A stretch of 64,000 nt of DNA from NCBI GenBank assembly GCA_034087725.1, contig JAXDXW010000004.1:49422-113421 (forward strand), read 5' to 3'. Position 1 is the first letter of the stretch. Each line of letters begins with the position of its first letter. This DNA comes from Candidatus Onthovivens sp. (lineage in GTDB: Bacteria; Bacillota_I; Bacilli_A; RFN20; CAG-826). Shown here one piece after another: positions 7,954 through 61,086 of the stretch. Both the position numbers and the translations under genes were made by a program. The notes beneath the pieces were generated by a model. That model was not told where the DNA came from. It did not search any database and saw only the letters and a list, made by a program, of their open reading frames with translations.

Positions 7954-9925
7954 CGAAAGCAAACCTTTTCAATTAGTAAGTCCATATAAACCAACCGGGG
8001 ATCAACCAACAGCTATTAAAGAATTAATCCAGGGTTTAAAAAATAATAAAAAGTTCCAAGTACTTCTTGGGGCAACTGGAACTGGAAAAACTTTTACTAT
8101 GGCCAATATTATCGCTCAAATGAATCGCCCAACTTTAATAATGGTGCATAATAAAACTCTTGCAGCTCAACTGTATGCTGAAATGAGAGATTTATTTCCT
8201 CATAATCGTGTTGAATACTTTATTTCTAATTTTGATTTTTATCAGCCTGAAGCATATATCCCTTCTTCTGACACATATATTGATAAAAGCGCTTTGTCAA
8301 ATGAGGAAATCGAAATGATGAGAACTAGTGCTGTAAATAGCATAATTGATAGAAGAGATACAATCGTTGTAGCGAGTGTTGCGGCAATATATGGATTAAC
8401 AGACCCTGAAGAATATAAAAAACTTATATTTGAAGTACGTGTAGGCGAAGAAGTTGATAGACATTTGCTATTTTCTAAATTGATTGAAGCCCAATATAAG
8501 CGCAACGATATTGATTTAAATCCTGGAAGATTTAGAGTCCGAGGAGACATTATAGATATAATGCCAACATATAGTAGCGAATATTATATAAGAATAGATA
8601 CTTTTGGCGATTTAATTGAGTCAATATCAAAATGTGATTATGTTACAGGAGAGGTACTCGAGAGATATCGTACTTACAATCTTTTTCCTGCATATGATCA
8701 TGCTTCCACTTTTGATCGCATAAGAGAAGCTACGGAAACAATTCTTGAGGAGTTGGATACAAGATTAAAAGAATTTGGAAAAGAGGGAAAAGCTTTAGAA
8801 GCAGAAAGATTGGCTTTTAGAACACATCAAGATGTTGATTCTATGCTTGAATTTGGTATATGCCCTGGAATTGAAAATTATTCTAGGCATATTGATAAAA
8901 GAAAACCTGGAGAGAAACCATTTTGTTTGATGGATTATTTTCCAAGAGATTTTTTGCTGTTTGTCGACGAATCACATGTGACTTTACCTCAAATTAGGGG
9001 GATGTATAACGGTGATAGAAGTAGAAAAGAAACGTTAGTTGAATACGGCTTTAGATTACCTAGCGCTTTAGATAATAGACCGTTAAATTTTGATGAATTT
9101 TTAGGTGAAATAAATCAGATTATATGTACCAGTGCTACTCCTGGAGATTTTGAGCTCGGTGAAACTGATAACATTTATAGTGAACAAATTATTCGTCCAA
9201 CTGGTTTATTAGATCCAGAAATTGAAGTCCGCCCTACTTTAAATCAAATATCTGACATAATGTTTGAAATTAATAAGAGAATAGAGAAAAACGAAAGAAC
9301 AATTATTGTTACATTGACTATTAAAATGGCTGAAGATCTCACTAAATACTTAAAGGATCATGGCATAAAAACAGTTTATTTACATAGCGAATGTAAAACC
9401 TTAGAAAGAAGTGAGATAATTTATCAATTTAGAAAGCAGAAATATGATGTATTAGTAGGAATTAATTTATTAAGAGAAGGATTAGATATTCCAGAATCCT
9501 CATTAATGGTTATTTTAGATGCGGATAAAGAAGGTTTCTTAAGGTCTGAACGTAGCTTAATTCAGGTAGTTGGTAGAGTTGCAAGAAATTCAAACGGGAA
9601 AGTTATTATGTACGCTGATAAAATAACCGACAGTATGAAAAAATGTATCGATGAAACTAATCGAAGAAGAGAAATTCAAAACAAATATAATTTGGAAAAC
9701 GGAATTATACCTCAAACGATAATAAAAGAAATTAAAGAACCTTTAAAAGTTAATGATGATAATTTAGAAGTGAGTTATTCTGGAAAATTGTCAAAGACAG
9801 AAATCGAAAAGCGTATTAAAGTGTTTGAAAAAGAAATGCGTTTAGCTGCTAAAAACTACGACTTTGAAAAAGCTATTGAGCTTAGAGAAACTATTGTTGA
9901 ACTAAAAAATAAATTAAAAAAATAG
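7943..9925 (+). CDS. uvrB: Excinuclease ABC subunit B
   Basis: The N-terminus [21 protein letters not shown], Walker A GATGTGKT and the C-terminal UVR domain all fit UvrB. The ORF-track start at 7910 is an in-frame upstream extension; the ATG at 7943 is preferred. Confidence 0.93.
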   Translation: MANNESKPFQLVSPYKPTGDQPTAIKELIQGLKNNKKFQVLLGATGTGKTFTMANIIAQMNRPTLIMVHNKTLAAQLYAEMRDLFPHNRVEYFISNFDFYQPEAYIPSSDTYIDKSALSNEEIEMMRTSAVNSIIDRRDTIVVASVAAIYGLTDPEEYKKLIFEVRVGEEVDRHLLFSKLIEAQYKRNDIDLNPGRFRVRGDIIDIMPTYSSEYYIRIDTFGDLIESISKCDYVTGEVLERYRTYNLFPAYDHASTFDRIREATETILEELDTRLKEFGKEGKALEAERLAFRTHQDVDSMLEFGICPGIENYSRHIDKRKPGEKPFCLMDYFPRDFLLFVDESHVTLPQIRGMYNGDRSRKETLVEYGFRLPSALDNRPLNFDEFLGEINQIICTSATPGDFELGETDNIYSEQIIRPTGLLDPEIEVRPTLNQISDIMFEINKRIEKNERTIIVTLTIKMAEDLTKYLKDHGIKTVYLHSECKTLERSEIIYQFRKQKYDVLVGINLLREGLDIPESSLMVILDADKEGFLRSERSLIQVVGRVARNSNGKVIMYADKITDSMKKCIDETNRRREIQNKYNLENGIIPQTIIKEIKEPLKVNDDNLEVSYSGKLSKTEIEKRIKVFEKEMRLAAKNYDFEKAIELRETIVELKNKLKK

Positions 9926-9945
9926 CGGACTTTTGCAGGGTTTTT
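9913..9945 (-). repeat. Copy a of the dispersed AAAACCCTGCA(G/A)AAC...ATTATTTTTT repeat
   Basis: The reverse complement reads AAAAACCCTGCAAAAGTCCGCTATTTTTTTAAT. It lies in the 27-nt gap between the convergent uvrB and typA stops, and its T-tail overlaps the last uvrB codons. Confidence 0.7.
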
Positions 9946-9952
9946 GAGAAAA

Positions 9953-11776: not shown

Positions 11777-11887
11777 ATCGAAGTCCTCATAAAACGTTTA
11801 TAAATATATCATATTTATAAATATTTTGTATATAAAATAGAGAAAAAATTGCTTATAGAAAAATTAAAAAAACTATATAAAAATAAA

Positions 11888-11916
11888 TAAAACCCTGCAA
11901 AACCTAATTATTTTTT
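11888..11916 (+). repeat. Copy b of the dispersed repeat
   Basis: TAAAACCCTGCAAAACCTAATTATTTTTT, in the divergent typA/secG intergenic region. Confidence 0.7.
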
Positions 11917-19090: not shown

Positions 19091-19124
19091 TTAATTATTT
19101 AATTTATAAAAAAGTTTTAGTGAA

Positions 19125-19167
19125 AGGTACTCCAAATCCTAGAAATTAGGAAAGGAGTACTTTTTTC
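19125..19167 (+). terminator. Rho-independent terminator after the alcohol dehydrogenase gene
   Basis: GTACTCC...GGAGTAC stem with an inner CCTA/TAGG stem, followed by TTTTTT. Confidence 0.65.
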
Positions 19168-19870
19168 TATAAAATATTAGTAAAAATACAAGCTTGAATG
19201 TATCTGTATCCAAAAATGTTCATATTAAAATGTCCACTTTATCGATGGGTTAAAAAAAATAACGAAAAAGGCGTTGCTCAATCAATACCTAGAAAAGAAA
19301 TTGTATTAACAACTGTGCAAAAGAATAATTCTTTAATGTGATGAAAAACGAATTGTTTTATGCTCATGGATCTGAATTTAATGCGTTTGATCAATTAAAA
19401 AGTGACTAATTAATATCTTTATTATTATAATTATGGAATTAATAGAAACAAATAAATGTCAACTTTCCAAAATTAGTTAAGCATCCATGTTAACCTTCCG
19501 ATATAAACTAGTTAGCAAACAATTAGTGTCTTGGAAATTGAGTTTCAATGATAGGACAACTCTTTTTTTGCACTTAAGTTTAATTTAATAAAATTAGTAT
19601 ATCTAATCAGAATTCAACAAGTTTATCGAAAGTGAGCAATAAATTTTTATTAATTTCTATATCAAAAAACTTAACGACTAAGATAAGTTAAAAGATGTTA
19701 TAATCAAAAATATAAATGTGGATTCTTTGTGAATTGCATTAGATATTTAGGAGGACAAACTTGCAGAGTATATAAATTAATCTTTAGTTAGGTAAATAAT
19801 TTTTGAATACTATAATTCTAAGAATTAATTTGTTTGGTCTTAAAAAAATATTAAAAAGTACTTAGAATTT

Positions 19871-19899
19871 AAAAAACCCTGCAGAACTCAAGTTATTTT
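19871..19899 (+). repeat. Copy c of the dispersed repeat
   Basis: AAAAAACCCTGCAGAACTCAAGTTATTTT directly abuts ATG 19900, so the downstream gene has no Shine-Dalgarno sequence. Confidence 0.7.
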
Positions 19900-20589
19900 A
19901 TGAAATTTTTGAAATCATTCTTTAGTTTAAATTATATTTTTCTTTTAATTCTTTGCTACATCGGAGGATTTATTGAACTTTATAGCTTAGAGGTTAGAGG
20001 CGCTTTTGCCGGACTACAAACAGGTAACTTAATTTACATATTTGTGAACATGATTAAAGGTGATTATTACCTAGCTCTTTATTATTTTTTACTCATCTCT
20101 TGTTTCGTTGTTGGTGTGATTATTAGTCAAATTGTTGTAAATGTATGTAAGAAAAGAAACAAAGAGTACAAATTTATAATTTTGTTTCTCGAAATAACAT
20201 GTTTGATTGTTGATTTAATTATTCCAGTCAATCAATCTATCTTAGACCCTCTTAATATTTTGGGTGCGATATCTTTGTCATTATTTTGTGGGTTACAAAT
20301 ACACTCTTTTATAGAAGTACATAATCATCTTTTGGCTACAACAATGATAACAGCAATGATTAGATCTTTAGTCGATAACATTTATAAATACCTTACGCAA
20401 AAAACAAAAGAAAACATAATTAGCGCTCTTTCTTTATTTTTATCAATTTTGTCATTTACGCTCGGAGCAATTACTTTTTCGTTTATTGATTTTTTTGCAA
20501 AAGATATTTCAAGTTATTTTATTTCTATACCGATTTTTCTATTGTTTATGTGTTTGTTTTTACATTTGCTTGCTTTAAAAAAGAAATAA
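19900..20589 (+). CDS. Integral membrane protein, possibly DUF1275/YoaK family
   Basis: 229-aa protein with six predicted TM helices and a GAFAGLQTGNLIY segment resembling the TGN motif of DUF1275. It has no RBS. Confidence 0.45.
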   Translation: MKFLKSFFSLNYIFLLILCYIGGFIELYSLEVRGAFAGLQTGNLIYIFVNMIKGDYYLALYYFLLISCFVVGVIISQIVVNVCKKRNKEYKFIILFLEITCLIVDLIIPVNQSILDPLNILGAISLSLFCGLQIHSFIEVHNHLLATTMITAMIRSLVDNIYKYLTQKTKENIISALSLFLSILSFTLGAITFSFIDFFAKDISSYFISIPIFLLFMCLFLHLLALKKK

Positions 20590-20697
20590 TTAATTTTTTG
20601 GTGAAAACTAATTAGATTCGGTAAGTATTTACTCAATAATAGTTTAATTTTACTTTTAGTAAGTTTATAATTTAAAAGTCGATTATTGGAGGAAATT

Positions 20698-23028: not shown

Positions 23029-24522
23029 ATGAAATATGTTTTAACAGGTGAACAAGCTAAAGAAGCAGATTTATTCACTATCAACGAAAGAAAAATACCA
23101 GCAAAAGAATTAATGAAAAAAGCTGGCTTTAAAATGTATGAGGTCTTAAAGAGATACATTAATAAGCAAGACTCCGTCTTGATTGTATGTGGGGCAGGGA
23201 ATAATGGTGGAGATGGCTATGTTTTAGGATCATTTTTATATGAAAATGGTTTTGATGTAAGTATTTTTCAATATAAAACGCCGAAGACAAGCGAGGCGAT
23301 TGCGGCTTATAGCGAATTTAACGGGAAAATTATAAAAGAAATCAATAAAAATTATGATGTAGTTGTTGATGCTATTTTTGGAGTTGGACTATCAAGAGAT
23401 TTAGACGACATAACTAAGAACTTTATTTCGTTTTTAAATAAAATGTCCGGTTTTAAGGTTTCCTTAGATATACCAAGCGGATTAGATTCGACAAATGGTA
23501 ATATAATGGGAAATGCTTTTGTTTGTGATTTATTAATTACTGTCCAATGCTTAAAAAGTGGTTTGTTTTTAAATAAAGGAGTCACCACTTTTGAAAAGGT
23601 GGAAATAGTTGATATCGGAATTGATACTTCTTGTGTAATTGATAAATTAATTATTTATGAAGATGAAGATTTTCAAAATATATTGCAAAAGCGTTCAAAA
23701 ATATGCAATAAAGGTACGTTTGGCAAAGTCGCTTTAATTGGGGGCAGCCATGATTTATGCGGCGCTGCAATTTTAAGTGCATCTGCTTTAGCCTCACTTA
23801 GATGTGGCGTAGGATATTCTAGAATTTGTGTGCCTGAAAAGTTATACGATATATACGCTTTAAGAAATCCAGAAAATATTTATTTTGCTTTCAAGAGCGA
23901 CGATAAAGGAAATATTTTGTTTGATGAAGAAAATCTTAGATCAATTTTAAACTATGATTGTATTGGAGTAGGCATGGGGCTAGGATGCTCTGAAAATGTA
24001 TATAATATTTGCCGCTATTTATTGGAAAATTATACTGGTAATTTAGTATTAGATGCAGATGCCTTAAATAGTATTTCAGCTTATAATTCTGATATATTAT
24101 CTCATCATAAATGCAATTTAGTTATAACTCCTCACATAAAAGAATTTTCACGATTAACTAAACTTTCAGTAGATGAAATTTTAAAAAAAGAGTTGAGTTT
24201 TGCAAAGTTTTTTGCAAAAAAACGGGATTTAACACTTGTTTTAAAGAGCAATACAACTATTATTTGCAACAGCCAAAATTGTGTTCTAAATATTACTGGA
24301 AATCCTTCTTTAGCAAAAGGGGGAAGTGGCGATATACTGACAGGCATTATAGTGGGTCTTTTATCATTTACATCTAATAAATTCTTATCTAGTTGTTTTG
24401 GACCGTATTTACTTGGAAAGTGTGCAGAATCTATTTGTTATAAAATCGATGAACGTAGTGTAATAGCTACTGATATTGCAAATGAAATTGGTTATGTATT
24501 AAAAAATATTAAGGATAAATAG
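23029..24522 (+). CDS. nnr: Bifunctional NAD(P)H-hydrate epimerase/dehydratase
   Basis: YjeF-N motif VLIVCGAGNNGGDGYV and a C-terminal carbohydrate-kinase-like dehydratase domain (GGSGDILTG). TGTATAAT ends 7 nt before ATG 23029 and there is no Shine-Dalgarno sequence, consistent with a leaderless mRNA. Confidence 0.8.
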   Translation: MKYVLTGEQAKEADLFTINERKIPAKELMKKAGFKMYEVLKRYINKQDSVLIVCGAGNNGGDGYVLGSFLYENGFDVSIFQYKTPKTSEAIAAYSEFNGKIIKEINKNYDVVVDAIFGVGLSRDLDDITKNFISFLNKMSGFKVSLDIPSGLDSTNGNIMGNAFVCDLLITVQCLKSGLFLNKGVTTFEKVEIVDIGIDTSCVIDKLIIYEDEDFQNILQKRSKICNKGTFGKVALIGGSHDLCGAAILSASALASLRCGVGYSRICVPEKLYDIYALRNPENIYFAFKSDDKGNILFDEENLRSILNYDCIGVGMGLGCSENVYNICRYLLENYTGNLVLDADALNSISAYNSDILSHHKCNLVITPHIKEFSRLTKLSVDEILKKELSFAKFFAKKRDLTLVLKSNTTIICNSQNCVLNITGNPSLAKGGSGDILTGIIVGLLSFTSNKFLSSCFGPYLLGKCAESICYKIDERSVIATDIANEIGYVLKNIKDK

Positions 24523-24523: not shown

Positions 24524-27500
24524 ATGAAAACTATAATAGGCATAAGAAAGTGGTTATCTTTCATTATTATTGGGCTTGCTGGGCAATTTGCTTGGACTAT
24601 TGAAAATATGTATTTGAACAAGTTCATATTTTCATTGGACAGTAGTGGAAATTACATGAGTTTAATTTCATTAACCGTTGCTTTAAGTGCGGTTACAGCT
24701 TGTTTAACAACAATTTTTGTTGGAGGAATTATTGATAAATTTGGCCACAGAAAATTAATTATTTCGTGTGGCTATATTTTGTGGGGAATATCAACTTTTG
24801 CTTTTGGCTTTATAAGTGTTGATAATGTAGCAGCATTATTTCCTGCTGCTTCTGCTGGATTTTTAGCTGGAATATTTGTCATTGTTCTTGATTGTATAAT
24901 GACTTTCTTTGGAAGTAGTGCGAACGACGCTTGCTTTAACTCGTATGTAACAAGAGAAGTTGATAATGACAATCGCGGAAAAGTAGAAGGTGTATTGTCT
25001 ATACTGCCTCTTTTTGCAATGCTTATTATTTTTGTCGGATTAAACTTTTTAACAGAAGGTGAAAATCCAAGATGGGATATATTCTTTTATATAATTGGAT
25101 CTATCGTTATTTTAGTAGGCATTATAAGTATCTTCTTGTTGCCTAAAGAAGTGAATGAAGATAAGGGTAATAAATATTTTAGCATAGTTGCAAACGGATT
25201 TAAGATCTCTACTATCAAACAAAACAAGACACTATATTTAGTGTTTTTAGCTTATATGATTTATGGGATTTCAAGTCAAATATTTTTTCCTTATTTAATG
25301 ATTTATTTCCAATACTCTCTTGGGTTTGAAGGAATAGATTTTTCTTTAGTTTTGGGAATAGTTCTCATAATCGGTTCTATTTTAAGCGTAATTTATGGGA
25401 TTCTTTCTGACAAAATAGGAAAAATAAAATCGTTATTTCCTATTTTAGTAACATACTGTGTCGGATTATTTTTATTATTTTTTGTTCAAAAAGGACAATT
25501 GGCTTTTGCTATAATAGCAGGCATCTTAATGATGCGGGGATATATTTCCTTAAGTAGTGTATTAAACTCGTTAGTTCGTGAATTCATCCCTGAAGATAAG
25601 GAAGGTAGTTTTATGGGCATTCGAATGCTTTTTGTTGTAATGATACCAATGTGTACTGGCCCTTATATTGGAGAAGCTATTTCTAGTGGTTTTCCATCAG
25701 GTGTATATAGCGATTTAGGAGTAGATAAACCTTTGCCTTCCAATTATATTTGGCTATTTTCCTTGCTAGTTCTTTTGCTTATATTAATTCCTCTACTTTT
25801 TGTAATTATTAATAGCAAAAAACAAAACAAAGAAAAGAAGAAAAACAACGGAATTCTTTACACCACTGATCTAAGCGTTGAAGATGTACCTCTTAAAGAT
25901 TATCCCAGAATCAATCTAGTTCGTGACTCTTATATTTGTTTAAATGGAAAATGGGAAATTTGCATAAATACTTCGAGAGACATTCCTAACTCATTTGAAA
26001 AAGAATGTATAGTTCCTTTTGCGGTAGAATCACCATTAAGCGGAGTCAATCATCTTCTCGAAGTAAACGAGTATATTCACTATCATAAAATTGTTAATTT
26101 TGATTCTGCTTTCAACCTAGGCAAAATCATTTTGCATTTTGAAGGGATTGATTGCGAAAGTGATATTTATATCAACAAGCAGAAAATTTGTTCGAATATT
26201 TCTGGTTACCTTCCAGTTGAGTTAGATATAAGCGACTATGTTAAAGCAAATAGTTTTGAAATCGATGTTACTGTCAGCGACAAAAGTGATTTGTCCCCTT
26301 TTTCAAAAGGAAAGCAAAAATTAAATAGAGGGGGGATATGGTATACAACTACAAGTGGAATTTATAAGCCTGTTTGGCTTGAAAGTGTACCTGTAAATTT
26401 TATAAAAAAAGTTGAAATTAGGACACTTTTTGATGAAAATAAAGTGTTTTTTAATGTTGTTTCAACTTGTTCTGAAGATGTAAACATTAAATTTTTAGAT
26501 TATGTTATTAATGGCAAAACTAACGAGATAATAGAAGTTGATGTTAAAAATTTGCCTATATGGAGTGTTACTAATCCTACATTGATATATGTAGATGTCG
26601 AAACAAAAGAAGACAAAGTTAGGTCGTATTTTGGGTTTAGGAAAATTTCTATCAGTTGTTTTGATGACAAAAAATATATATGTCTAAATAATAAGCCAAT
26701 ATTTTTAAATGGTGTTTTAAATCAAGGCTATTATTATGGAGGAAACTTAACACCTAGTTCCTATAAAGACTATGAAGATGATATTTTACGACTTAAGAAG
26801 TTAGGTTTTAATACAATAAGAGTACATATTAAACAAGAACTGGATAGATTTTATTATCTATGTGATAAACATGGAATTTTAGTAATTCAAGATATACCAA
26901 ATGGAGGTGAAAAATATTCGCTCACTGTCCAAATGCAAGGAGGTCTACTCCCCTTTATAAAAAAGAAAAATGATCACAATTATAAAACTTTTTCCAGAGT
27001 TTCGTCTGAAGGAAGAAACGAATATGATTTGGTGTTAAAAAATATATTATCAACTTTAGTTAACTTTCCATCCGTTATTATGTACACTTTGTTTAATGAA
27101 GGACGGGGGCAGTTTGACAGTGATGTCGCATATCATAAATCTAAAGCGTTAGACAACAGCAGAATTTATGATGTTGCAAGCGGGTGGTATGATAACGGAT
27201 TTAATGAAATTATTTCTATCCACTCTTATTTTTACCCTTTAAAAATTTCAAAAACCCTGCAAAAACCGATTATTTTTTCTGAATTTGGCGGTTATTCGTT
27301 GCTACTAAAAGATCATTTTTTTGGTTTAAAAAAGTTTGGTTACAGGCATTATAAAGATCATATAGCTTTAACTAAGGCTTACACTAAATTATATAAAAAA
27401 AGCATTATACCTCTTATTGATAAAGGTTTAAGTGGATGTATTTATACCCAATTTAACGATGTAGAAGATGAAGTAAATGGTTTGTTTACATTTGATAGAA

Positions 27501-29411: not shown

Positions 29412-29440
29412 AAAAAACCTTGCAGAACTGAATTATTTTT
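29412..29440 (+). repeat. Copy e of the dispersed repeat
   Basis: AAAAAACCTTGCAGAACTGAATTATTTTT, between the rdgB start and tRNA-Gly. Confidence 0.65.
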
Positions 29441-29481
29441 AATAAAAAAGCTTTGATAAATCAAAGCAAAATTTTATTAAA

Positions 29482-31775: not shown

Positions 31776-32375
31776 ATGAGTTATGAATTAAAAAAAGACA
31801 ACGTTTATCAGCTTGAGGTAGAAAAATCTAAATTCATTTCTTACGCTTTTTTTGTGAAAAACCATGCAGAAGTCCAATATTTTTTAAAAAAACTTGAAAA
31901 AGAACATCAAAAAGCTCGACATATTTGCTATTCCTATGTAATCAATAACCAAATAAAAATGAGTGATGATGGTGAACCAAGCGGCACAGCTGGGAAGCCT
32001 ATTTATAACTCGATTATTATGCATAAGATGAATAATTGTCTTGTTGCGGTGGTTAGATATTTTGGCGGCACATTATTAGGCAGTGGAAGATTGTTAAGAA
32101 CTTATTCTGAATCGGCTTCGCGAGTGTTGGACAGTGCTGAGAAAGTGGAATTAATTAATGAGTTTCTATTCAAAGTAGAATTAACATACGATATATATGA
32201 TAAATTTACTTCTTTTTTGAAGTTTAAGTATTTAACTATCATTAAAAAGTATTTTAATGATAATATAGTCATTGAGTTTTTTTCAAAGGATGATATTGAA
32301 GAAGAAATTCTTAATCAATTCTTTGGAAAAATTAATATTTTAGAGAAATGTATGGTTGAGCACAGAAAGGAATAG
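31776..32375 (+). CDS. yigZ: IMPACT/YigZ-family protein
   Basis: EVEKSKFISY...ARHICYSY...DDGEPSGTAGKPI, the conserved N-terminal IMPACT domain. Confidence 0.8.
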   Translation: MSYELKKDNVYQLEVEKSKFISYAFFVKNHAEVQYFLKKLEKEHQKARHICYSYVINNQIKMSDDGEPSGTAGKPIYNSIIMHKMNNCLVAVVRYFGGTLLGSGRLLRTYSESASRVLDSAEKVELINEFLFKVELTYDIYDKFTSFLKFKYLTIIKKYFNDNIVIEFFSKDDIEEEILNQFFGKINILEKCMVEHRKE

Positions 32376-34474: not shown

Positions 34475-35084
34475 ATGCAAAGTTTGTGGCGAAATAATTT
34501 CCAGCCCTGTTTTGTGCCCTTTTTGTGGTAGCGGAAGTGATGAAATAGAAAAAATCGAAGAAGATTTATTAGATGATACTTCTGAATCGATTATTGAAGA
34601 AGATGTTGTGGAAGAAACTTTTTCTAATGAAGAAACTATTAAAGAGGAAACGCATCACGAATCTTCGCAAGATGATTTCAACAATATTTTAAATGATGAA
34701 TCCTCTAACGAAGAAGTTAATTCTTATATTTATGAAGATGATGACAAAAAAGATAATGTTATTGATGATTTGGAAGTTCTTAATGAAGATAACTGTGAAT
34801 CTTTAGACGATAAAACTGCAGAAAATGATTTTATAAGAGAAGAAGAAAAAATCTCTCAAATTAGCGAAAACCCTGCAGAACTCGAATATTTTTTCAAAAT
34901 TTTTGGTAATTTGTATTTAAATGACATCGATAAATTTAATAAATTTAAACCTTATTTCGAATATTTTGTTACAGATCGACTAGTTAAATATGGAAAAAAT
35001 TTTGATATTAATTCAGTAAATGAAAATGATTTTGGTGAATTTTTTAAAACCATTTTAAATCAAATTAAAGGTATCAATAAATGA
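34464..35084 (+). CDS. Hypothetical acidic protein with an N-terminal rubredoxin-like zinc ribbon
   Basis: CKVCG...CPFCG followed by a D/E-rich segment. It overlaps the pepP stop and the downstream gene start, and it contains repeat copy f. Confidence 0.45.
   Translation: MKYRCKVCGEIISSPVLCPFCGSGSDEIEKIEEDLLDDTSESIIEEDVVEETFSNEETIKEETHHESSQDDFNNILNDESSNEEVNSYIYEDDDKKDNVIDDLEVLNEDNCESLDDKTAENDFIREEEKISQISENPAELEYFFKIFGNLYLNDIDKFNKFKPYFEYFVTDRLVKYGKNFDINSVNENDFGEFFKTILNQIKGINK
34867..34894 (+). repeat. Copy f of the dispersed repeat (intragenic)
   Basis: GAAAACCCTGCAGAACTCGAATATTTTTT encodes ENPAELEYFF. Confidence 0.65.
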
Positions 35085-40967: not shown

Positions 40968-42131
40968 ATGGAAAAAGAAAAAAAGCAAGAAGCAAAAGAA
41001 GAAGTTAAAATTTTAAAAGATGTAATTGAAGTTGATACGCACGTTCCCTACATTATTTCTGGACAATTTAGTGATTATAAAGAAGGATCATCTGTTTCTT
41101 TTGTTTGCAATCAACTTTATTGTGTTGCAAAAATAAAGTATCACGGAAAAAATAAAGTAGATTACTCTATAAATCAAGAAAGTGCTAAATTGCGCGTTTC
41201 TGAAATCAAAGACTTTAAAAAGTCTGATGCATATACTTTAAAATCCATTATTTTTGGAGTTTACGAAGAATTAAAAAATAATAATTTAACCGAAGATCTG
41301 CAGGGTTTTTCCTTAAAAATTGACACAAATTTGAAATTATCTGAAGGGCTTGAAATTAATATTGCTATTAGTTTATTAAAAGCATTTAATATCATTTTTG
41401 ATTTAAAACTAGATGATTTTGCTATAGCTGAAATGGTGCAAAAAGTTATCTCTTTGTATTTTGGCAAGGTGGTAACATTGCTAAATGTTCTTGCTTATTT
41501 TCAAAAAGGAGTAGTCCAAATGACTTTAAGAGATAGACATCTTTTTATCGAGGATTCTCAAGATAATTTAGATAGATATGCTTTCTTCCTTTTCGAAGAC
41601 GGCGATGGGTTTACTATTCAAGAGCATAATCAAATTTTTGAAACTTTATTTTCCACATACAAGAAGACAAAAGAATATTTTCATGTAAACTATTTGAGTG
41701 AAATACCAGAAGAAACTAGAGCTTTCCATATATTTACTCAAAATTCATATTTTCCAGATAACGAAAAGTTTATTTTAACTCATTATTATGAAGAACTTAA
41801 AAGATCTAGGTTTGTTTTAGAGGGATTTAAGGATGCAAATACTACAACTAAATTATTTGACTCACTTAATCTTTCAACTATTGAACTTGGAGCATTTGTC
41901 GGTTTTAACAGTTTTGAAAAATTTTTAGAAAACATTTCTATTAAATCAAATTATCGTGGCGGTGAATGCGCAGAGACAATGCTAAATGAAAGTTGCTTTG
42001 GCAAATTTGTTTATATTGTTAAAAAAGAAGATCAATCAAGTATTTTTAAATATTTGGCTTCATACAAGTTCTTTAAAATCACTCAACTAACAGTTTCAAC
42101 TGAACCAATTGAGATGTATCAAATTTACTAA
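40968..42131 (+). CDS. Degenerate galactokinase-like GHMP-family protein, probably non-catalytic
   Basis: GalK-like N-terminal signature (IISGQFSDYKEG against GalK LIGEHTDYNDG). The phosphate-binding loop LSEGLEINIAISLL lacks the G/S-rich PxGSGLSSSA motif. A C-terminal RGGEC segment stands in for GalK TGGGFGG. The gene is co-directional with, and 27 nt after, the permease gene. Confidence 0.5.
   Translation: MEKEKKQEAKEEVKILKDVIEVDTHVPYIISGQFSDYKEGSSVSFVCNQLYCVAKIKYHGKNKVDYSINQESAKLRVSEIKDFKKSDAYTLKSIIFGVYEELKNNNLTEDLQGFSLKIDTNLKLSEGLEINIAISLLKAFNIIFDLKLDDFAIAEMVQKVISLYFGKVVTLLNVLAYFQKGVVQMTLRDRHLFIEDSQDNLDRYAFFLFEDGDGFTIQEHNQIFETLFSTYKKTKEYFHVNYLSEIPEETRAFHIFTQNSYFPDNEKFILTHYYEELKRSRFVLEGFKDANTTTKLFDSLNLSTIELGAFVGFNSFEKFLENISIKSNYRGGECAETMLNESCFGKFVYIVKKEDQSSIFKYLASYKFFKITQLTVSTEPIEMYQIY
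41291..41312 (-). repeat. Copy g of the dispersed repeat (core only, intragenic)
   Basis: CTGCAGGGTTTTTCC; the reverse complement is AAAAACCCTGCAGATC. The AT tail is degenerate. Confidence 0.4.
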
Positions 42132-42136: not shown

Positions 42137-42166
42137 AAAAAAACATTTGAGTTCTGCAGGATTTTA
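42137..42166 (-). repeat. Copy h of the dispersed repeat
   Basis: The reverse complement is AAAATCCTGCAGAACTCAAATGTTTTTTT, immediately after the stop of the GHMP-like gene. Confidence 0.65.
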
Positions 42167-42184
42167 TTTATAAATCATCAAAAT

Positions 42185-43669: not shown

Positions 43670-44222
43670 GTTTGTTTTGCTTTAAAATTTTTTCAATATA
43701 AAAAAGTGGAAATCCTATCACATTATTTTTATCGCCTTTAATTTTTTTAATAAGATTAAATTTACCATCATCTTGTATTGAATAGGCGCCAGCTTTATCT
43801 AGAACATTAATGGTATGAATGTAGTTTTCTATTAGTTCATCAGAAAGGTTATTAAAGAATACATAAGTTTTAACTTCTTTAAAATAGTGTTTATTTTTAT
43901 AAAAAATGGCCACTCCGCTAATTACAGCATGCCTCTTTCCAGATAAAAGTTGTAGATATTTTTTTGCCTCGTTTAAATCTTTTGGTTTAGTCAAAACTAT
44001 ATTTTTATATTTAACAATCGTATCGCAACAAATTAAAAAATCTTGGGGTTCTGCAAGGTTTTTTATAGAAAAAGCCTTATTTTTTGCTTCTTTGAGAGCT
44101 AAATGCCTCGTATTTTTGTTAATTAAATTTTCATCAAAAGTTGGCTTAATTAATTTAAATTCAGGAACAAGCTTCTTTAATAATTCTATACGTCTTGGAG
44201 ACGAACTACCTAAAATAACCAT
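43662..44222 (-). CDS. maf: Maf-family nucleoside triphosphate pyrophosphatase
   Basis: N-terminal ILGSSSPRR and conserved C-terminal motifs. It lies 1 nt after rnj on the same strand. Confidence 0.85.
   Translation of the reverse strand: MVILGSSSPRRIELLKKLVPEFKLIKPTFDENLINKNTRHLALKEAKNKAFSIKNLAEPQDFLICCDTIVKYKNIVLTKPKDLNEAKKYLQLLSGKRHAVISGVAIFYKNKHYFKEVKTYVFFNNLSDELIENYIHTINVLDKAGAYSIQDDGKFNLIKKIKGDKNNVIGFPLFYIEKILKQNKLI
44034..44064 (-). repeat. Copy i of the dispersed repeat (inside maf)
   Basis: The reverse complement is AAAAAACCTTGCAGAACCCCAAGATTTTTTAA, encoding ...KNLAEPQDF... in Maf. Confidence 0.55.
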
Positions 44223-46077: not shown

Positions 46078-47157
46078 ATGTATAAGTTTTATAAATTTAA
46101 AAAGAATTTAAAATATTATTTCTTCGATCATCCAGTACAAAAAGATATAGCCGAAAATTTATATATGCTTGCCGTTACAGCATTGTCGGCTTTTATTTTT
46201 GCTTTTGGATTTAATACATTTATTCAGCCAAATTTTTCTGCTATTGGAGTAGATAGTTCTCAAGCAACAATAAAATATTTAGCAAGTTGTGGTGCGTCTG
46301 GAATTTCTCAATCATTTTGTGCGTTATTACGAATTTTTGGATTAGAATTTATGAATAGCGATATAAATTTTAACATTCTCTACTGGACATGCTATGCAAC
46401 AATTAATATTCCTTTATTTTTCCTTGGATTTTTTAGAGTTGGCAAAAAATTTGCAGTTTATTCTTTTATAAACGTAATTTTGGCATCAATTTTTGGTATT
46501 TTTCTTAAAAGTAATGATCCTAACTTTTTCATAAATGTAATTGGTTCTAAACTTATAAATGAAACAGTTGCTAGAGTGTTATTTGCCGGAATTTGTACAG
46601 GCTTAGCGAGTGCTTTATCATACAAAATTGACTCTACTGCCGGAGGAACGGATATTATTGCATTCTTTATAAGTGAGAAAAAATCTGTGTTAATCGGTAA
46701 ATGGAGCGCTTTCTTCAATGTAATTATTGTTTCAACATATTTAATACTAAGTTGTGTTCCTTTGAATGAAAGTATTTTCCCAGCAAATGGCGAGTTCACC
46801 GCTATTGAACCTGCAACAGCATTTATCATTTTCCTTTTTACAATGCTTTATATGATTATCGTTACTTTGGTCGTTGATATTATTAATACAAAGAATAAAA
46901 AATACTTGCTTGAAATTATTACTCCTAATTATAACTTATCTCAATCGATTATTGCCTCTGTCCCACACGGATGCACAATTACGAATGGAGTTGGTGGTTA
47001 TTCTGGAAAGCCAGTATATACAATTCAAATTACTGTCAGGAAAAGTGAAGTAAAACAGATTGTTAAATTAACAAGAGCAATCGATCCTAAAGCTTTTATA
47101 AACGTTCTACCAATGGAGCAAGTTTACGGCAAGTTCTTTAGGAACCCTATTAAATAA
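46078..47157 (+). CDS. YitT-family membrane protein (second paralog)
   Basis: Same architecture as 6910-7953: a polytopic N-terminal region plus a DUF2179-like C-terminal domain. Confidence 0.65.
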   Translation: MYKFYKFKKNLKYYFFDHPVQKDIAENLYMLAVTALSAFIFAFGFNTFIQPNFSAIGVDSSQATIKYLASCGASGISQSFCALLRIFGLEFMNSDINFNILYWTCYATINIPLFFLGFFRVGKKFAVYSFINVILASIFGIFLKSNDPNFFINVIGSKLINETVARVLFAGICTGLASALSYKIDSTAGGTDIIAFFISEKKSVLIGKWSAFFNVIIVSTYLILSCVPLNESIFPANGEFTAIEPATAFIIFLFTMLYMIIVTLVVDIINTKNKKYLLEIITPNYNLSQSIIASVPHGCTITNGVGGYSGKPVYTIQITVRKSEVKQIVKLTRAIDPKAFINVLPMEQVYGKFFRNPIK

Positions 47158-47187
47158 AAACCCTTCTAAACTCCACTATTTTTTCTG

Positions 47188-50068: not shown

Positions 50069-51592
50069 ATGAAAATAGGAATTACAGGTGTTACAGGGAA
50101 TATGGGATCTGCTGTTTTGCAAGAAATAGTGGATTTACAATTTGTAGATAAAATTTATTTGTTAATAAGAAGCGAGAAACCAAAATCTAAAAAAATATCT
50201 AGGATTTGCAAGGTTTTTTCTCAGAAAATTGAGTTTATCCATGGAGACATGCTAAATAAAAAAGCATTAGAAATTCTTGTAGATTGTTCGGATGTAATTT
50301 TTGATTTAGCTGCCGTCATTCCTCCAAATTCTGATAAAAATCCAAAAGCTGCTGTTGAGTGTAACGAATTAGGTGCAGAATTACTATTAAAAATAATAGA
50401 AAAGAATAAACCTGATTTATTGTTTATTCATACTTCAACTGTTGCTGTTTATGGAAATAGGAGTCCAGCTCATCCTTATGTTGAAATAGGGGATCCACTA
50501 TTACCTAGTGTTGGTGATATATATGCTATTTCTAAAATGAGAGCTGAGTATAAAATTTTTGAGTCTAGTTTATCTAAATGGGTAATTTTGAGGCAAACTG
50601 CTATGGCTCACGATAATTTAATGTCTGGTAATCTTTCGGATGGGCTTATGTTTCACACATGTTTTAATTCACCACTAGAATGGGTAACAGCGAAAGATAG
50701 TGGTTTATTGTTTAAAAATATTTTGGTTTCTTTAAAGAATGGTTTACTTAATGAAAGAAATTTTTATAAACATGTATTTAATATTGGAAATAAAGCAAAT
50801 AGAATTACTGGCTTTGAAACAATTAATAATGGATTTAGCTTAATGGGTGCAGGAACAAAAGAATTTTTCAAGCCTTATTATAATGCTTCTAGAAACTTTC
50901 ACGGAGCATGGTTTAGAGATAGTGATAAATTGAACGATTTATTTAATTTTCAAAGTGAATCATTGGATCATTTTTGGCTTGAATTTTTAAATAAAAATCC
51001 TTATATTTCGCTTGGAAAATTATGCCCTAAAAGCATTATTTCTAAATTGGTCATTGATAAGTTATTAGATGATGATAATTCCCCCAATAAGTGGGTAAAA
51101 GATAATAAAGTTCCGCTTATTAAAGCTTATTATAAGTCTATTGAAAATTTTAATAGTATTCCTCATGATTGGGATAAATTTTATCTATTTTGCGAAGATG
51201 AATCTTACAATAAACTTAAAAAGAATACTAATTTTGCTAGAATTGATTTAGGTTTTGATACTTCCAAAGATGATAGAGACATAGATATAGATGACCTAAA
51301 AAACGTTGCTTATATGCATGGTGGAAAACTATTAACAAAAGATTTTCTTAAGGGAAATGTTTATGCAAAAGTTCAATGGCAAAATGCTGATGGCGTAATC
51401 TTCGAAGCTTCACCATACACTATTTTGCGTGGAGGGCACTGGATTAATGAATCTTATTTCAAAAATATTTGGGAATTTAATAGATTAGCTAAAATTGATA
51501 AAATTTATAATCAAATTTGGTTTGACACCTTTGATAAATCAGAAGATGATATTTATTATTTAGACGAAAATTATATTTTAAAAACTAAGTAA
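50069..51592 (+). CDS. NAD-dependent epimerase/dehydratase (SDR-fold) protein with a ~180-aa C-terminal extension of unknown function
   Basis: N-terminal GITGVTGNMGSAV Rossmann motif and a YxxxK-like region. The C-terminal part has no recognisable motif. Confidence 0.6.
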   Translation: MKIGITGVTGNMGSAVLQEIVDLQFVDKIYLLIRSEKPKSKKISRICKVFSQKIEFIHGDMLNKKALEILVDCSDVIFDLAAVIPPNSDKNPKAAVECNELGAELLLKIIEKNKPDLLFIHTSTVAVYGNRSPAHPYVEIGDPLLPSVGDIYAISKMRAEYKIFESSLSKWVILRQTAMAHDNLMSGNLSDGLMFHTCFNSPLEWVTAKDSGLLFKNILVSLKNGLLNERNFYKHVFNIGNKANRITGFETINNGFSLMGAGTKEFFKPYYNASRNFHGAWFRDSDKLNDLFNFQSESLDHFWLEFLNKNPYISLGKLCPKSIISKLVIDKLLDDDNSPNKWVKDNKVPLIKAYYKSIENFNSIPHDWDKFYLFCEDESYNKLKKNTNFARIDLGFDTSKDDRDIDIDDLKNVAYMHGGKLLTKDFLKGNVYAKVQWQNADGVIFEASPYTILRGGHWINESYFKNIWEFNRLAKIDKIYNQIWFDTFDKSEDDIYYLDENYILKTK

Positions 51593-51600
51593 ATTTTTCA

Positions 51601-51629
51601 AGAACCCTGCAGAAATCGCTTATTTTTTT
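51601..51629 (+). repeat. Copy j of the dispersed repeat
   Basis: AGAACCCTGCAGAAATCGCTTATTTTTTT, between convergent genes. Its T-tail overlaps the AraC-gene stop. Confidence 0.6.
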
Positions 51630-55896: not shown

Positions 55897-57093
55897 ATGG
55901 CTAAACAAGAAAAGAAAAATAAGTTATGGGTAAAAGTTTTAAAATATAGCGGAATAAGCTTATTGATAGTTTTATCTTGCTGTATTTTAGTTGTAGGCTC
56001 TTATGCTTTATATGTTGTATGTGATTATAACCGTATTGAAGATAATCTAGTTTTAAAAGTAGAACATTCTGATAGTTCAAAGGACTTGATGCAAACAAAT
56101 ACAGAGTACAGTGCCACAACATTAAATATAGGCTTTGGTGCTTACTGTGATGAGTATAGCTTTTTTATGGATAGCGGTTATTTGGAAGACGGAACAAAAA
56201 TTCACGGAAAATATGGAAAAGCAATTTCTAGAGAAAGTGTTATTGAAAATACTGCCGGTTGTATTAATGCGGCAACTTCATTAGATAGTGATTTTTATTT
56301 ATTTCAAGAAGTTGATACAAATAGTGATCGAAGCTACCATTATAATCAATTAGAAGCGATCTTATCTAATTTTGGAAATTTTGATTCTACTTTTGCTGTT
56401 AATTTCCATAGCTCTTATCTTTTTTATCCGTTTAATGACCCACACGGGAAATCTAACGCAGGATTAAATACATTATCTAGTTTTAAAATTAATGAAGCGC
56501 TTAGAAAAAGATACACAATAAGTGATGGATTTGCTAAATATACTGATTTAGACAGGTGTTTTAGTGTAAATAGAATTAGTGTAGAGAATGAGAAAGAATT
56601 AGTTTTGATTAATTCACATATGTCTGCTTATGATGAAGGTGGTGTCATTAGAAATAAGCAACTTAATGAGTTAAATGATTTTATGTTAAGTGAAATTAAT
56701 AAAGGGAATTATGTTATTTGTGCTGGTGATTTCAACCACGATTTGTTAACTTATAATCCATTATATCCACAATTTACCAAAGAGAATTTCCCTTATAAAG
56801 AAATGATCAAACAACCTAAGCCTGATTGGATTAGTTATATGTTTGACGAAGAAAGCAATACAGTAATTGGTAATCAATTTTCAATTTATTCTGGCGCAAA
56901 TGAACCAACATGTAGAGGATGTGAAATTCCTTGGGACAGAGGGTTTAATTTTGTTACTCCTGTTGATGGATTTATTGTTTCAAATAATGTGGAAGTTAAA
57001 TCATGCCTAACAACAAGGGTTGATGGAGAAAACGGTTTTTCATACAGCGATCATCAGCCAGTTACATTAAAATTTATTTTGAAAAATAATTGA
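55897..57093 (+). CDS. Endonuclease/exonuclease/phosphatase (EEP) family protein with an N-terminal signal anchor
   Basis: K-rich N-terminus plus a TM helix. EEP-like motifs (TLNIGFGAY, LFQEVD, SDHQPV at the C-terminus). TGA stop. Confidence 0.55.
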   Translation: MAKQEKKNKLWVKVLKYSGISLLIVLSCCILVVGSYALYVVCDYNRIEDNLVLKVEHSDSSKDLMQTNTEYSATTLNIGFGAYCDEYSFFMDSGYLEDGTKIHGKYGKAISRESVIENTAGCINAATSLDSDFYLFQEVDTNSDRSYHYNQLEAILSNFGNFDSTFAVNFHSSYLFYPFNDPHGKSNAGLNTLSSFKINEALRKRYTISDGFAKYTDLDRCFSVNRISVENEKELVLINSHMSAYDEGGVIRNKQLNELNDFMLSEINKGNYVICAGDFNHDLLTYNPLYPQFTKENFPYKEMIKQPKPDWISYMFDEESNTVIGNQFSIYSGANEPTCRGCEIPWDRGFNFVTPVDGFIVSNNVEVKSCLTTRVDGENGFSYSDHQPVTLKFILKNN

Positions 57094-57108
57094 GTTTTGC
57101 AGGGTTTT
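57079..57108 (-). repeat. Copy k of the dispersed repeat
   Basis: The reverse complement is AAATAAAACCCTGCAAAACTCAATTATTTTTC. It overlaps the stop codon of the EEP gene. Confidence 0.7.
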
Positions 57109-57150
57109 ATTTAAAATTTTAAGTTTTTTAAAAATGTAGAAGGGATTTTT

Positions 57151-59122: not shown

Positions 59123-59854
59123 ATGATAAAAGCTGTATTTTTTGATTTAGACGGGACATTAGTTCCTATGGATGAAAAAAAGTTTATAAAATTATACATC
59201 GATTCTTTGTTCGAAGAAGTTAAACAATTTCATATCGAAAAAGAAATTTTTACCAGAGCACTTATGAAAGGGCTGATGGCGATGATTAATAATGACGGCT
59301 TCGTTTCTAATGAAAATTTATTTTGGGAAGTATTTGATAACGAACTTGGAATGAAATTAAGGGATAAAAAAGATATATTTGATAAATATTATTTAAATAA
59401 CTTCAAATGCGTAAAATTTGCCACAGGCGAAAGTCCTGAATCAAAAAAAATAATTGAGTTTTGCAGGGTTTTAGGCTTAAAAACAGTACTTTCAACAAAT
59501 CCGATTTTCCCAAAACAGGCAGTTATAACTCGAATGAATTTTGTTGGTTTAAATACGAATGATTTCGATTATATAACATCATATGAGAATTCTTTTTTCT
59601 GTAAACCGAATCCAAAATATTTTGCTTCTTTGCTAAAAGAATTAGGTTTAAAGCCAGAGGAAGTTTTAGTTTTTGGGAATAATAAAGAAGAAGACTGTTA
59701 CTGCTCAGCACAAGCTGGTATAAAATCTTATTTGGTAGATAATAGATGTTTAATAATTCCAGACTCCGTAAAAGATGAACAATTTGAATGTATAAAAATA
59801 AATGAAGTCAATGATGTTATACAAAGAGAGATTGAAAGAAATAAAACTATTTAA
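59123..59854 (+). CDS. HAD-superfamily hydrolase
   Basis: Motif I FFDLDGTLV and motif II LSTN. It contains repeat copy l, and its stop overlaps the convergent pfk stop by 8 nt. Confidence 0.7.
   Translation: MIKAVFFDLDGTLVPMDEKKFIKLYIDSLFEEVKQFHIEKEIFTRALMKGLMAMINNDGFVSNENLFWEVFDNELGMKLRDKKDIFDKYYLNNFKCVKFATGESPESKKIIEFCRVLGLKTVLSTNPIFPKQAVITRMNFVGLNTNDFDYITSYENSFFCKPNPKYFASLLKELGLKPEEVLVFGNNKEEDCYCSAQAGIKSYLVDNRCLIIPDSVKDEQFECIKINEVNDVIQREIERNKTI
59443..59474 (-). repeat. Copy l of the dispersed repeat (inside the HAD gene)
   Basis: The reverse complement is AAAACCCTGCAAAACTCAATTATTTTTTTT, encoding ...KKIIEFCRVLG... on the plus strand. Confidence 0.65.
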
Positions 59855-61031
59855 TTCTAAAAGGTTTTACTAAATATTTTGTTCCTTCCACAAGAGGAGA
59901 AATATATTCTAAAAAGTTGTCATTAATTCCGTTTCCATCTTTATTAATATATTTTAAAGGCAAAAATTGAACCTCATTTGCCATAATTGATAGTTTTTCT
60001 AGTGAAAATTCATATTCATATGGTGAAGAAGTTTTTCTAATTATAATTACTCCCTTCCCGCTATTTCCCTTTATTGCTTCTTTTAACGCATATTTTGAAG
60101 CATTAATCGCTATTTCTTTTTCGATATCCACTGGTAGATATGTTGAAGCTCTTTGCATTAAAGATAGTTCCATATATCTTGTTTTGTAGCCAAATTCTTT
60201 CTCAATAGTTTTAGTTAAAATGATACCCAAGCCTCCTAATTGAGAATGGCCGAATTTATCAACATTAGAGTTTGCTTTGAAGATAAATTCTCCTTCTTTA
60301 TTTTTGAGTCCTTCACTAACTACAACAATACAATGTTTCTTTTTTTCGTAGATATTCTTCACATCCTTTAAAAATTGATTAATATCAAATACTCCTTCAG
60401 CTACATAAATTAAATCGGGTTCACAATTTACTAGTTTACAAAGTTTAGAACTTGCAGCTAGCCAGCCGGTGTTTCTTCCCATTGTTTCTATGATATTAAC
60501 TCTTCCAACTTTATAAGAAGCATCGTCTATTGTTATCTGAGTTACAACATTTGCGATGAAAATAGCTGATGTTAAATAGCCTAAGGAGAAATCCGAACTG
60601 GGTAGGTCATTATCGATAGTTTTATTCAACCCAATGCATCTACATTCGTAATTATTGTCTTTTAGGAAACGATCTATTTTATTAATTGTATCCATTGAAT
60701 CGTTTCCACCATTATAGAAAAAATATCTTATATTATTATCTTTAATTGTTTTAAAAATCTTTTGAAAAATTATTTTGTCTTTTTCGTAATCTAAATGAAT
60801 TCTATTGCTACCAAAAGCAGCTCCCGGTGTAACTTGAAGACTTTCAATATTATCTTCTGGAGTTATTTTAATCAGCTCGTTATTAATTATTCCATCTAAT
60901 CCAAATCTTGCGGCGAATACCTCATTTATTTCCTCGTGAATAAAAGCTTCTTTAATTAAACCATAAGCAGAACAATTAATAACACTTGATGGTCCGCCAC
61001 CTTGCCCGTACAATAAATTACCTTTTAACAT
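59847..61031 (-). CDS. pfk: 6-phosphofructokinase family enzyme (ATP- or PPi-dependent)
   Basis: GGGPSSVIN nucleotide loop and MGRNTGWLA (MGR motif). An AGAGGT RBS lies upstream on the minus strand. Confidence 0.75.
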   Translation of the reverse strand: MLKGNLLYGQGGGPSSVINCSAYGLIKEAFIHEEINEVFAARFGLDGIINNELIKITPEDNIESLQVTPGAAFGSNRIHLDYEKDKIIFQKIFKTIKDNNIRYFFYNGGNDSMDTINKIDRFLKDNNYECRCIGLNKTIDNDLPSSDFSLGYLTSAIFIANVVTQITIDDASYKVGRVNIIETMGRNTGWLAASSKLCKLVNCEPDLIYVAEGVFDINQFLKDVKNIYEKKKHCIVVVSEGLKNKEGEFIFKANSNVDKFGHSQLGGLGIILTKTIEKEFGYKTRYMELSLMQRASTYLPVDIEKEIAINASKYALKEAIKGNSGKGVIIIRKTSSPYEYEFSLEKLSIMANEVQFLPLKYINKDGNGINDNFLEYISPLVEGTKYLVKPFRIK

Positions 61032-61046
61032 TTAGATACCTCTAAT

Positions 61047-61086
61047 AAAAACCTGCAAAAATATGTGGGTTTTGCAGGCTTTTTTA
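61047..61086. terminator. Inverted pair of the dispersed repeat core forming a terminator hairpin (copy m)
   Basis: AAAACCTGCAAAA-ATATGTG-GGTTTTGCAGGC TTTTTT: a 9-bp CCTGCAAAA/TTTTGCAGG stem flanked by an A-tract and a T-tract, downstream of the PfkB kinase gene (minus strand). Confidence 0.7.

Follow-up and report, generated by a model that had tools for sequence, protein, structure and literature searches.

Uptake of DNA guided by short genomic signals, the uptake signal sequence (USS) of the Pasteurellaceae and the DNA uptake sequence (DUS) of the Neisseriaceae, is so far known from these two families only. Known uptake sequences gather in permissive regions of the genome, with about half of them in terminators, and are associated with dedicated receptors, namely ComP in Neisseria and the predicted ComN in Pasteurellaceae. 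Here, a dispersed motif that can be compared with these systems is described in Candidatus Onthovivens, an organism placed by NCBI in Bacillota, class Bacilli. The motif was analysed in a 64-kb stretch of contig JAXDXW010000004.1 (64,000 nt, hereafter the window) and then across genomes and metagenomes, and we tentatively propose that it acts as a USS/DUS-like genomic uptake signal of the Candidatus Onthovivens clade.

The motif has much in common with the Pasteurellaceae USS, which consists of the core AAGTGCGGT and phased AT-rich flanks. Both have a two-part build of about 30 bp in which AT-tracts follow a GC-rich core, and both use the two orientations equally, occur inside genes in few tolerated frames as well as in 3' spacers and terminators, accumulate by point substitution in permissive places, are spaced more evenly than random and follow a family-level clade with subtypes. 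In particular, a GC core combined with AT-tracts about two helical turns apart recalls the extended USS of Haemophilus. The two are nevertheless unrelated in sequence, the density is about 3-4 times lower here with almost no inverted pairs, and the USS hosts are Gram-negative bacteria with an outer-membrane secretin whereas the present host belongs to a monoderm lineage of Bacillota. Genome-specific dialects of one motif across related species and enrichment after genes are shared with the Neisseriaceae DUS and its receptor ComP, and one copy here forms an inverted-repeat terminator, as in many DUS; the DUS core, however, is 10-12 nt long, whereas the motif here is constrained over 28-30 nt. 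Overall, the matching traits comprise a massive excess of copies, orientation balance, clade sharing with dialects, origin by point mutation, and preferred frames together with 3' intergenic enrichment, while the frequent inverted-repeat terminator pairs of USS and DUS are unmatched. Since the core CCCTGCARAAC matches neither the USS AAGTGCGGT / ACAAGCGGT nor the DUS GCCGTCTGAA and its dialects, the relation to both is by analogy only.

When the copies are aligned each on its own strand, the consensus is AAAAA-CCCTGCARAAC-N5-TATTTTT, a unit of 28-30 bp made up of an A5 tract, the core CCCTGCARAAC, a 5-nt spacer and a TAT5 tract. Allowing up to one mismatch, the core is matched 15 times in the window versus 0.78 expected, and none of 100 dinucleotide-preserving shuffles yielded 15 or more core matches. 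A position weight matrix (PWM) spanning 30 nt was scanned along the window against a Markov-1 null. It retrieves 19 copies with scores of 21-43, and the distribution is bimodal, with no scores between 8 and 21; the Markov-1 nulls contain no match at a score of 14 or above, so that close to zero copies are expected. The frequency is therefore far above chance, a comparison that had been named beforehand as one that could refute the motif. The top over-represented GC-containing 10-mers and 12-mers of the window are likewise words derived from it. Information content amounts to about 32 bits over 30 nt, as estimated from 40 copies in loci chosen without regard to the motif. In 168 copies matched by their core, drawn from the window and from loci of carrier species, the core and the T-tract are more than 90% conserved, and the 5-nt spacer is the variable part, with the same positions varying in every genome. 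Such a profile, in which core and T-tract are fixed and the spacer is free, is as expected of a protein recognition site. The copies occur at one per 3.4-4.3 kb, and in the window the gaps between them are more even than random (coefficient of variation 0.56, P = 0.005). Nine copies are in plus and ten in minus orientation, while the GC skew is uniformly positive across the window. The 19 copies are listed below with strand, context and PWM score.

2231..2260, plus strand: sense in comFA, codons 276-286, LKNLAKPGYFL; PWM 33.3
6145..6174, minus strand: antisense in prfB, codon 92; PWM 25.0
9917..9946, minus strand: fills the 27-nt convergent spacer uvrB/typA and overlaps the last uvrB codons; PWM 40.5
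11887..11916, plus strand: divergent typA/secG spacer, upstream of typA; PWM 36.0
19871..19900, plus strand: motif with a spacer of 6 nt, where an 809-nt non-coding stretch ends immediately ahead of a DUF1275 gene; PWM 36.0
24184..24213, minus strand: antisense in a YjeF/Nnr gene; PWM 26.8
27249..27278, plus strand: sense in an MFS-glycosidase fusion gene, SKTLQKPIIFS; PWM 38.1
29412..29441, plus strand: between the rdgB start and tRNA-Gly, antisense to both; PWM 34.0
31856..31885, plus strand: sense in a UPF0029/IMPACT-family gene; PWM 33.9
34865..34894, plus strand: inside the open reading frame (ORF) 34464-35084, SENPAELEYFF, the top score in the window; PWM 43.3
41275..41311, minus strand: antisense in ORF 40941-42131, spacer longer by ~7 nt, which displaces the T-tract; PWM 21.3
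42138..42167, minus strand: convergent spacer downstream of a CYTH gene; PWM 28.6
44035..44064, minus strand: sense in maf, codons 53-63, IKNLAEPQDFL; PWM 37.2
47155..47184, plus strand: overlaps the stop codon of the YitT-family gene 46078-47157; PWM 30.6
50190..50219, minus strand: antisense in an epimerase-family gene; PWM 30.6
51599..51628, plus strand: fills the 27-nt convergent spacer 51593-51619; PWM 31.7
57081..57110, minus strand: end of gene 55897-57093, antisense to both flanking genes; PWM 38.0
59445..59474, minus strand: antisense in a HAD hydrolase gene, KKIIEFCRVLG; PWM 40.7
61045..61085, minus strand: after a pfkB-family gene, motif plus overlapping partial inverted core; PWM 36.3

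An earlier, sequence-only reading of this DNA had listed 13 of these copies. All were recovered with offsets of a few nt and in the orientations given, and the total rises to 19 with the six that had been missed (2231+, 6145-, 24184-, 31856+, 47155+ and 50190-). The same reading had placed five copies inside coding sequences; the actual number is ten (five sense, five antisense), and these occupy at least five frames; the other nine copies lie in spacers. Its further claim, that most copies are found either between convergent genes or no more than about 30 nt away from a stop codon, fails for the window (about 6 of 19) and holds as a trend for the intergenic copies of a larger set. What had been taken as an inverted pair at 61047 is a single copy of the motif in which the T-tract passes into part of an inverted core, and positions 61045-61085 fold into a terminator-type hairpin (minimum free energy, MFE, -18.7 kcal/mol, z = -3.57). 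The best copy of the window is held by ORF 34464-35084, although this frame is missing at that position in the related genome SUG1359 (L020) and in the relatives L118 and L119. This ORF encodes 206 aa with only a faint rubredoxin-like N-terminus and lies between M24 aminopeptidase and HAD genes.

The motif is not confined to the 64 kb of the window, as many contigs of at least 14 related species carry it. A scan for the exact pattern AAACCCTGCARAACN{4,7}ATTTTT over 185,579 species genomes, counted in blocks of 8 kb, returned at least 109 matching blocks, clustered in at least 14 uncultured low-GC Bacilli/'Mollicutes' species represented by metagenome-assembled genomes (MAGs) from gut and rumen. 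Among the matches listed, SUG1359 accounts for 27 blocks, SRP141132_co3_321 for 16 and two roe-deer MAGs for 10 and 8, and other taxa show single, chance-level matches. In metagenomes, 60 further low-GC loci holding 96 copies were found. Screening of 2.9 million viral contigs, among which phages of this clade were not identified, gave five single matches, one of them fitting the PWM, which corresponds to chance level. A sample free of ascertainment was obtained by retrieving loci via homologues of TypA and ComFA, with the motif ignored; exact matches to the TypA of the window or to the protein P0001 were absent from the indexed contigs. The carrier loci among them are the following.

L115/L116: TypA 89% identical; 5 copies in 21.8 kb
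L117: 7 copies
L118: 4 copies
L119: 1 copy
L120: ComFA 59% identical; 4 copies

Together, the window, L115 and L117-L120, representing six carrier species, hold 40 copies in 172 kb, or one per 4.3 kb, and 22 of these 40 are intergenic though 92% of that DNA is coding. Close relatives that share these genes also have the motif, partly at orthologous positions. Absence from such relatives and confinement to the 64 kb were the other two outcomes that the sequence-only reading had named as refuting, and none of the three was observed. Four further lineages (L121-L124, ComFA 53-56% identical, 28% GC) contain no copy in 85 kb, and in L121, L123 and L124 no other repeated motif was found. The gene order comFA-comFC-secA-prfB-yitT-uvrB in these non-carriers is the same as in carriers. 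As the motif is entirely absent despite equal synteny and GC content, it is not a by-product of composition or codon use and is, by this comparison of sequences, a clade character.

Placement was assessed over 192 copies, taken from the window and from carrier loci selected by the pattern scan. Genes contain 34% of them, 32 in sense and 33 in antisense; for co-directional spacers the split is 35 sense to 28 antisense. The orientation is therefore neutral with respect to genes and, given the even split in the window, to the replication/transcription strand. Convergent spacers carry 33 copies versus 13 for divergent ones, and the convergent density is the highest. Coding sequence makes up 90-92% of the DNA, yet 55-66% of copies, depending on the set, fall between genes; intergenic copies of the larger data set lie at a median of 11-32 nt from the nearest upstream stop codon. 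The window has four convergent spacers that measure 25 nt or more, and all of them contain the motif except 27575-27607, which precedes tRNA-Lys. Frame use inside genes is uneven (2/14/16 in sense, 3/12/18 in antisense), and the in-gene copies recurrently encode the peptides KN[PL]AE..YF and KKI..FC. In the first of these frames, the common CCTTGCA variant represents a Leu-for-Pro compromise.

Genome-specific preferences are seen at core position 8, where the ratio of G to A is 35:1 in CAYLSZ, 36:16 in SUG1359 (JAQXNS), 16:8 in RGIG4904, 8:11 in the window, 2:16 in RGIG4434 (JAFUEZ), 0:13 in CASFZJ and 1:8 in CALVRY. This indicates that the dispersed copies of each genome have shifted together, in the manner of DUS dialects.

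Copies at shared positions are conserved at the level of DNA, as the sequence-only reading had maintained. Indeed, the maf copy occupies the same codon position in SUG1359 with 27 of 30 nt identical, versus 47% identity between the Maf proteins, and the comFA copy is kept in four carriers, at the same codon position in L115, L117 and L120 as in the window, and is missing from the four non-carriers. The latter copy falls on the semi-conserved ComFA peptide LK.F.K.G.FV (ComFA homologues P0121-P0240), of which the motif-compatible form KNLAKPGYF is found in the nearest ComFA homologues only; lying within a competence gene, it is an example of a pre-adapted site. The copy in the typA/uvrB spacer is present in three species, in the same orientation as the window in L115/L116 and in the opposite one in L117. 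Upstream of typA a copy is found in four species (window, L115, L118 and L119; about 170-190 nt upstream), and the copy downstream of the CYTH gene has a counterpart at the same place in SUG1359 (L046 7063-7092). L115 and L116, two samples of one species, differ at 11840-11869 of each by a single base, which is the essential core G of the typA/uvrB copy (GCCTACAAAAC vs GCCTGCAAAAC), so the motif is polymorphic within a species.

Lineage-specific copies inside genes reveal how new ones arise. Such copies are found at prfB codon 92 in the window, at prfB codon 44 and sua5 codon 68 in L117 and in degV in L115, and all four sites align codon for codon with motif-free orthologues, without any indel. 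Several nucleotides differ and amino acids are replaced, such as LKID by CRVF in RF2. The orthologous motif-free positions have scores of the background level (-30 +/- 8) or, where they are weak proto-sites, of -7 to -12; for prfB codon 92, the orthologous codons of seven relatives show no indel and score from -7 to -36. Copies that appear in genes by substitution without indels exclude a mobile micro-element as their source. Of the two interpretations that the sequence-only reading had left side by side, an uptake-signal-like motif or a miniature element, the former thus fits the evolutionary signatures tested, while the latter fails for the in-gene copies.

How these signatures could come about may be outlined as follows. 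A surface DNA receptor of the competence apparatus, of the pseudopilin or ComEA type, would prefer double-stranded DNA bearing the motif; this DNA would enter via a ComEC/ComFA/ComFC route and replace the homologous allele. Biased uptake followed by recombination would then push tolerated sites, that is, spacers 3' of genes and variable parts of proteins, toward the motif by point substitution, and drifting receptor specificity would generate the genome-specific dialects (G or A at core position 8). Uptake bias, receptor and recombination drive are what we infer from the genomic pattern. An uptake signal is the best explanation in that biased uptake with subsequent homologous replacement is the only described process that writes a long motif into tolerated sites by point substitution genome-wide, in both orientations and throughout a clade, with dialects. 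The window itself contains two genes of the corresponding machinery.

1404..2555, plus strand: comFA, with DEAD/ResIII/Helicase_C domains, homologue of the competence DNA-translocation ATPase (one source names a homologue ComFA)
2482..3198, plus strand: comFC, with a Pribosyltran domain, directly after comFA

Both genes are intact in the window and in the relatives, where the order comFA-comFC-secA-prfB is conserved throughout, and this supports the uptake reading; they are candidate machinery, and their link to the motif is one that we infer only.

Several observations weigh against an uptake signal. To our knowledge, sequence-specific DNA uptake is not known in any monoderm bacterium. The density of one copy per 3.4-4.3 kb is below that of Haemophilus and Neisseria, where uptake sequences occur at about one per 1.2 kb, and just one of the 19 window copies is part of an inverted pair, unlike many DUS and USS. 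In addition, comFA and comFC are also present in all four non-carrier lineages and so do not explain the distribution of the motif. When about 1 Mb of carrier-like DNA, made up of genome and metagenome blocks selected by the motif, was screened with regular expressions and Pfam, no prepilin-type ComG, ComGA-type ATPase or ComEC was found, a weak negative because about one copy of each would be expected in 1 Mb. In that same DNA, which is too small a sample to establish absence, regular-expression and hydrophobicity filters returned no ComEA, DprA or competence pilus, and neither a ComP-like minor pilin nor another candidate receptor was identified; Pfam analysis of nine large membrane ORFs gave only ABC transporters, FeoB, MFS proteins and the like. 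The unannotated ORFs of the window have no competence-related Pfam match at E <= 0.05. The carriers, moreover, are uncultured organisms. Finally, a selected chromosomal binding site would yield most of the same signatures.

The main rival explanation, which we consider unlikely although it deserves serious attention, is accordingly a high-copy binding site of a chromosomal protein that is kept by selection, with a role in nucleoid organisation, in positioning topoisomerase or gyrase at gene ends, or in SMC-type loading. The position-specific constraint is typical of a protein site, and even spacing, preference for 3' spacers (the convergent ones above all) and retention of the typA/uvrB copy in three species in either orientation would fit such a role; the dialects could equally mirror co-evolution with any binding protein. 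A candidate protein, however, was not found, and no known architectural site joins about 32 bits of information with a density of one per 4 kb and with frequent copies in essential genes at the cost of amino-acid changes. Selection acting per site on hundreds of sites would presumably impose a heavy mutational load, which a recombination drive avoids, and close lineages with the same genome organisation are wholly without the motif. Other over-represented chromosomal words, such as Chi, the FtsK orienting polar sequences (KOPS), the SpoIIIE recognition sequences (SRS) and the architecture imparting sequences (AIMS), are also recognised by DNA-processing proteins and tolerated inside genes; they are 5-8 nt long and strongly skewed to the leading strand, whereas the motif extends over 28-30 nt and has no skew, and a Chi/KOPS-type word was rejected on the 9 plus and 10 minus copies under a uniformly positive GC skew.

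A role at transcript ends appears improbable. The motif would here be a hairpin-less, possibly protein-dependent, bidirectional termination or 3'-end signal, with A5 and T5 mimicking the A- and U-tracts of bidirectional intrinsic terminators, with which it shares an upstream A-tract, a downstream T-tract and a site just after stop codons. Intergenic copies do lie at medians of 1-32 nt after stop codons in both orientations, convergent spacers outnumber divergent ones as given above, several gene ends of the window have the motif and no recognisable hairpin, and the 61045-61085 copy is a true hairpin terminator. However, 34-45% of copies are in genes, prfB included, in both orientations and conserved across species, and an efficient terminator inside genes would be harmful. 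The tracts are not separated by a stem-loop as they are in bidirectional intrinsic terminators; indeed, an intrinsic terminator was rejected because stem-loop and U-tract occur together only in the 61045-61085 copy. The mean MFE is -4.57 kcal/mol versus -4.29 in shuffles, no Rfam family matches, and ordinary hairpin terminators exist in the same genome (1391-1416 and 12406-12428). The idea that the motif replaces missing hairpin terminators was also dropped: one hairpin is found versus 7 expected between 40 and 60 kb, but 13 versus 7.6 between 1 and 20 kb, where convincing hairpin terminators follow rpiB and secG. An RNA element was excluded, as the 19 copies with 12-nt flanks fold no better than shuffles on either strand, and so was a known RNA family, since Rfam 15 matches in the window are two tRNAs only. 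A promoter was rejected as well: the two halves are not spaced as sigma-70 or sigma-54 would require, and copies are rarest in divergent spacers.

Less probable still is a selfish miniature repeat that colonises genomes, either an element similar to repetitive extragenic palindromes (REP) or miniature inverted-repeat transposable elements (MITE), or one spread by short-patch gene conversion. With REP, their bacterial interspersed mosaic elements (BIME) and MITE, the motif shares dispersal, multiple copies, a mostly intergenic placement and a preference for 3' ends and convergent spacers, and genome-specific variants could mirror bursts from a master copy. Where L118 and L119 differ in an intergenic copy, the difference coincides with indels of about 59 and about 100 nt; these are not motif-sized. 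A REP/BIME or MITE identity was rejected because the motif is non-palindromic and without hairpin, is frequent in genes and shows no indels there, its lineage-specific in-gene copies being due to substitution at all four sites. It also has neither terminal inverted repeats nor target duplications, and no associated transposase was seen. The same spacer positions vary in all copies, unlike random decay, viral contigs give chance-level matches only, and the motif is conserved at family level across species with proteins about 45-60% identical, far past the usual life span of a REP or MITE. A restriction-modification or methylation motif centred on the CTGCAG (PstI-type) palindrome of the core, an idea already raised by the sequence-only reading, can hardly be credited: CTGCAG is present in about half of the copies, with a genome-specific preference, but 11 of the 19 window copies, and almost every copy in several species, have A at position 8 (CTGCAA), the conserved unit is asymmetric and, at 28-30 nt, far longer than any restriction-modification target, and such targets are not normally enriched.

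Some features of the window and its relatives stand apart from these questions. Translation table 11 gives intact housekeeping genes, including those for SecA, RF2, UvrB and TypA. The closest homologues of TypA and ComFA, about 100% identical, are assigned by NCBI to a MAG of Candidatus Onthovivens sp. In prfB, which starts at ATG 5808, a canonical programmed +1 frameshift site CTT TGA C is found at about 5880-5886. It indicates that UGA is a stop codon in this 'Mollicutes-like' lineage, and because of the frameshift the ORF listing shows only the downstream frame, from 5871. Region 19091-20685 comprises an 809-nt stretch without an ORF of at least 80 aa followed by the DUF1275 gene; it is absent in L115/L116, where Fe-ADH and DHOD-B-like genes are adjacent, and may be an indel or a decayed gene region. 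In a single ORF of 1016 aa at 24524-27574, the N-terminal ~430 aa form a sugar transporter of the MFS/GPH type, which is fused to a domain resembling glycoside-hydrolase family 2 (residues ~510-920). In four pairs of convergent genes, the 3' ends share 4-23 nt (28816-28838, 43662-43669, 49438-49441 and 59847-59854), which leaves no room for any terminator there. The two Onthovivens-like species L118 (13460-13660) and L119 (13457-13650) share, at about 80% identity, an intergenic stretch of about 240 nt that the window lacks. This stretch contains several hairpins, the terminal one being a GC hairpin with a T-run behind it. Rfam yields no match to it at E <= 0.01, and it is a candidate for a small RNA so far left unannotated; directly behind its terminator, L118 has a copy of the motif.

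Sequence-selective uptake is known in two Gram-negative families only, and Gram-positive competence has been treated as sequence-blind. Literature searches for the core sequence, for uptake sequences in Firmicutes/RF39/Bacillota and for Onthovivens together with competence found nothing relevant. Against this background, the motif could represent an uptake signal that evolved independently of the two known systems, as the third of its kind and the first from Bacillota; by means of this two-part signal, a clade of gut and rumen Bacilli would recognise its own DNA, a proposal that we regard as a real possibility while stopping short of calling it probable. Should its function be confirmed, it would be a sequence-unrelated uptake motif in a new phylum. 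If the motif served another function, a site of about 32 bits, point-mutated into essential genes every ~4 kb and shifting in concert, would have no described counterpart in Bacillota. If the uptake reading is true, self-DNA preference would have evolved at least three times and the competence machinery of monoderms would include a new DNA-recognising component, with the role of a sequence-specific receptor. The motif would then also offer a practical tag for DNA delivery in genetic work and a marker for tracking the clade in metagenomes. Collectively, it would provide genomic evidence that gut bacteria with reduced genomes, unculturable as they are, can be naturally transformed, and that active, self-biased natural transformation takes place in the gut.

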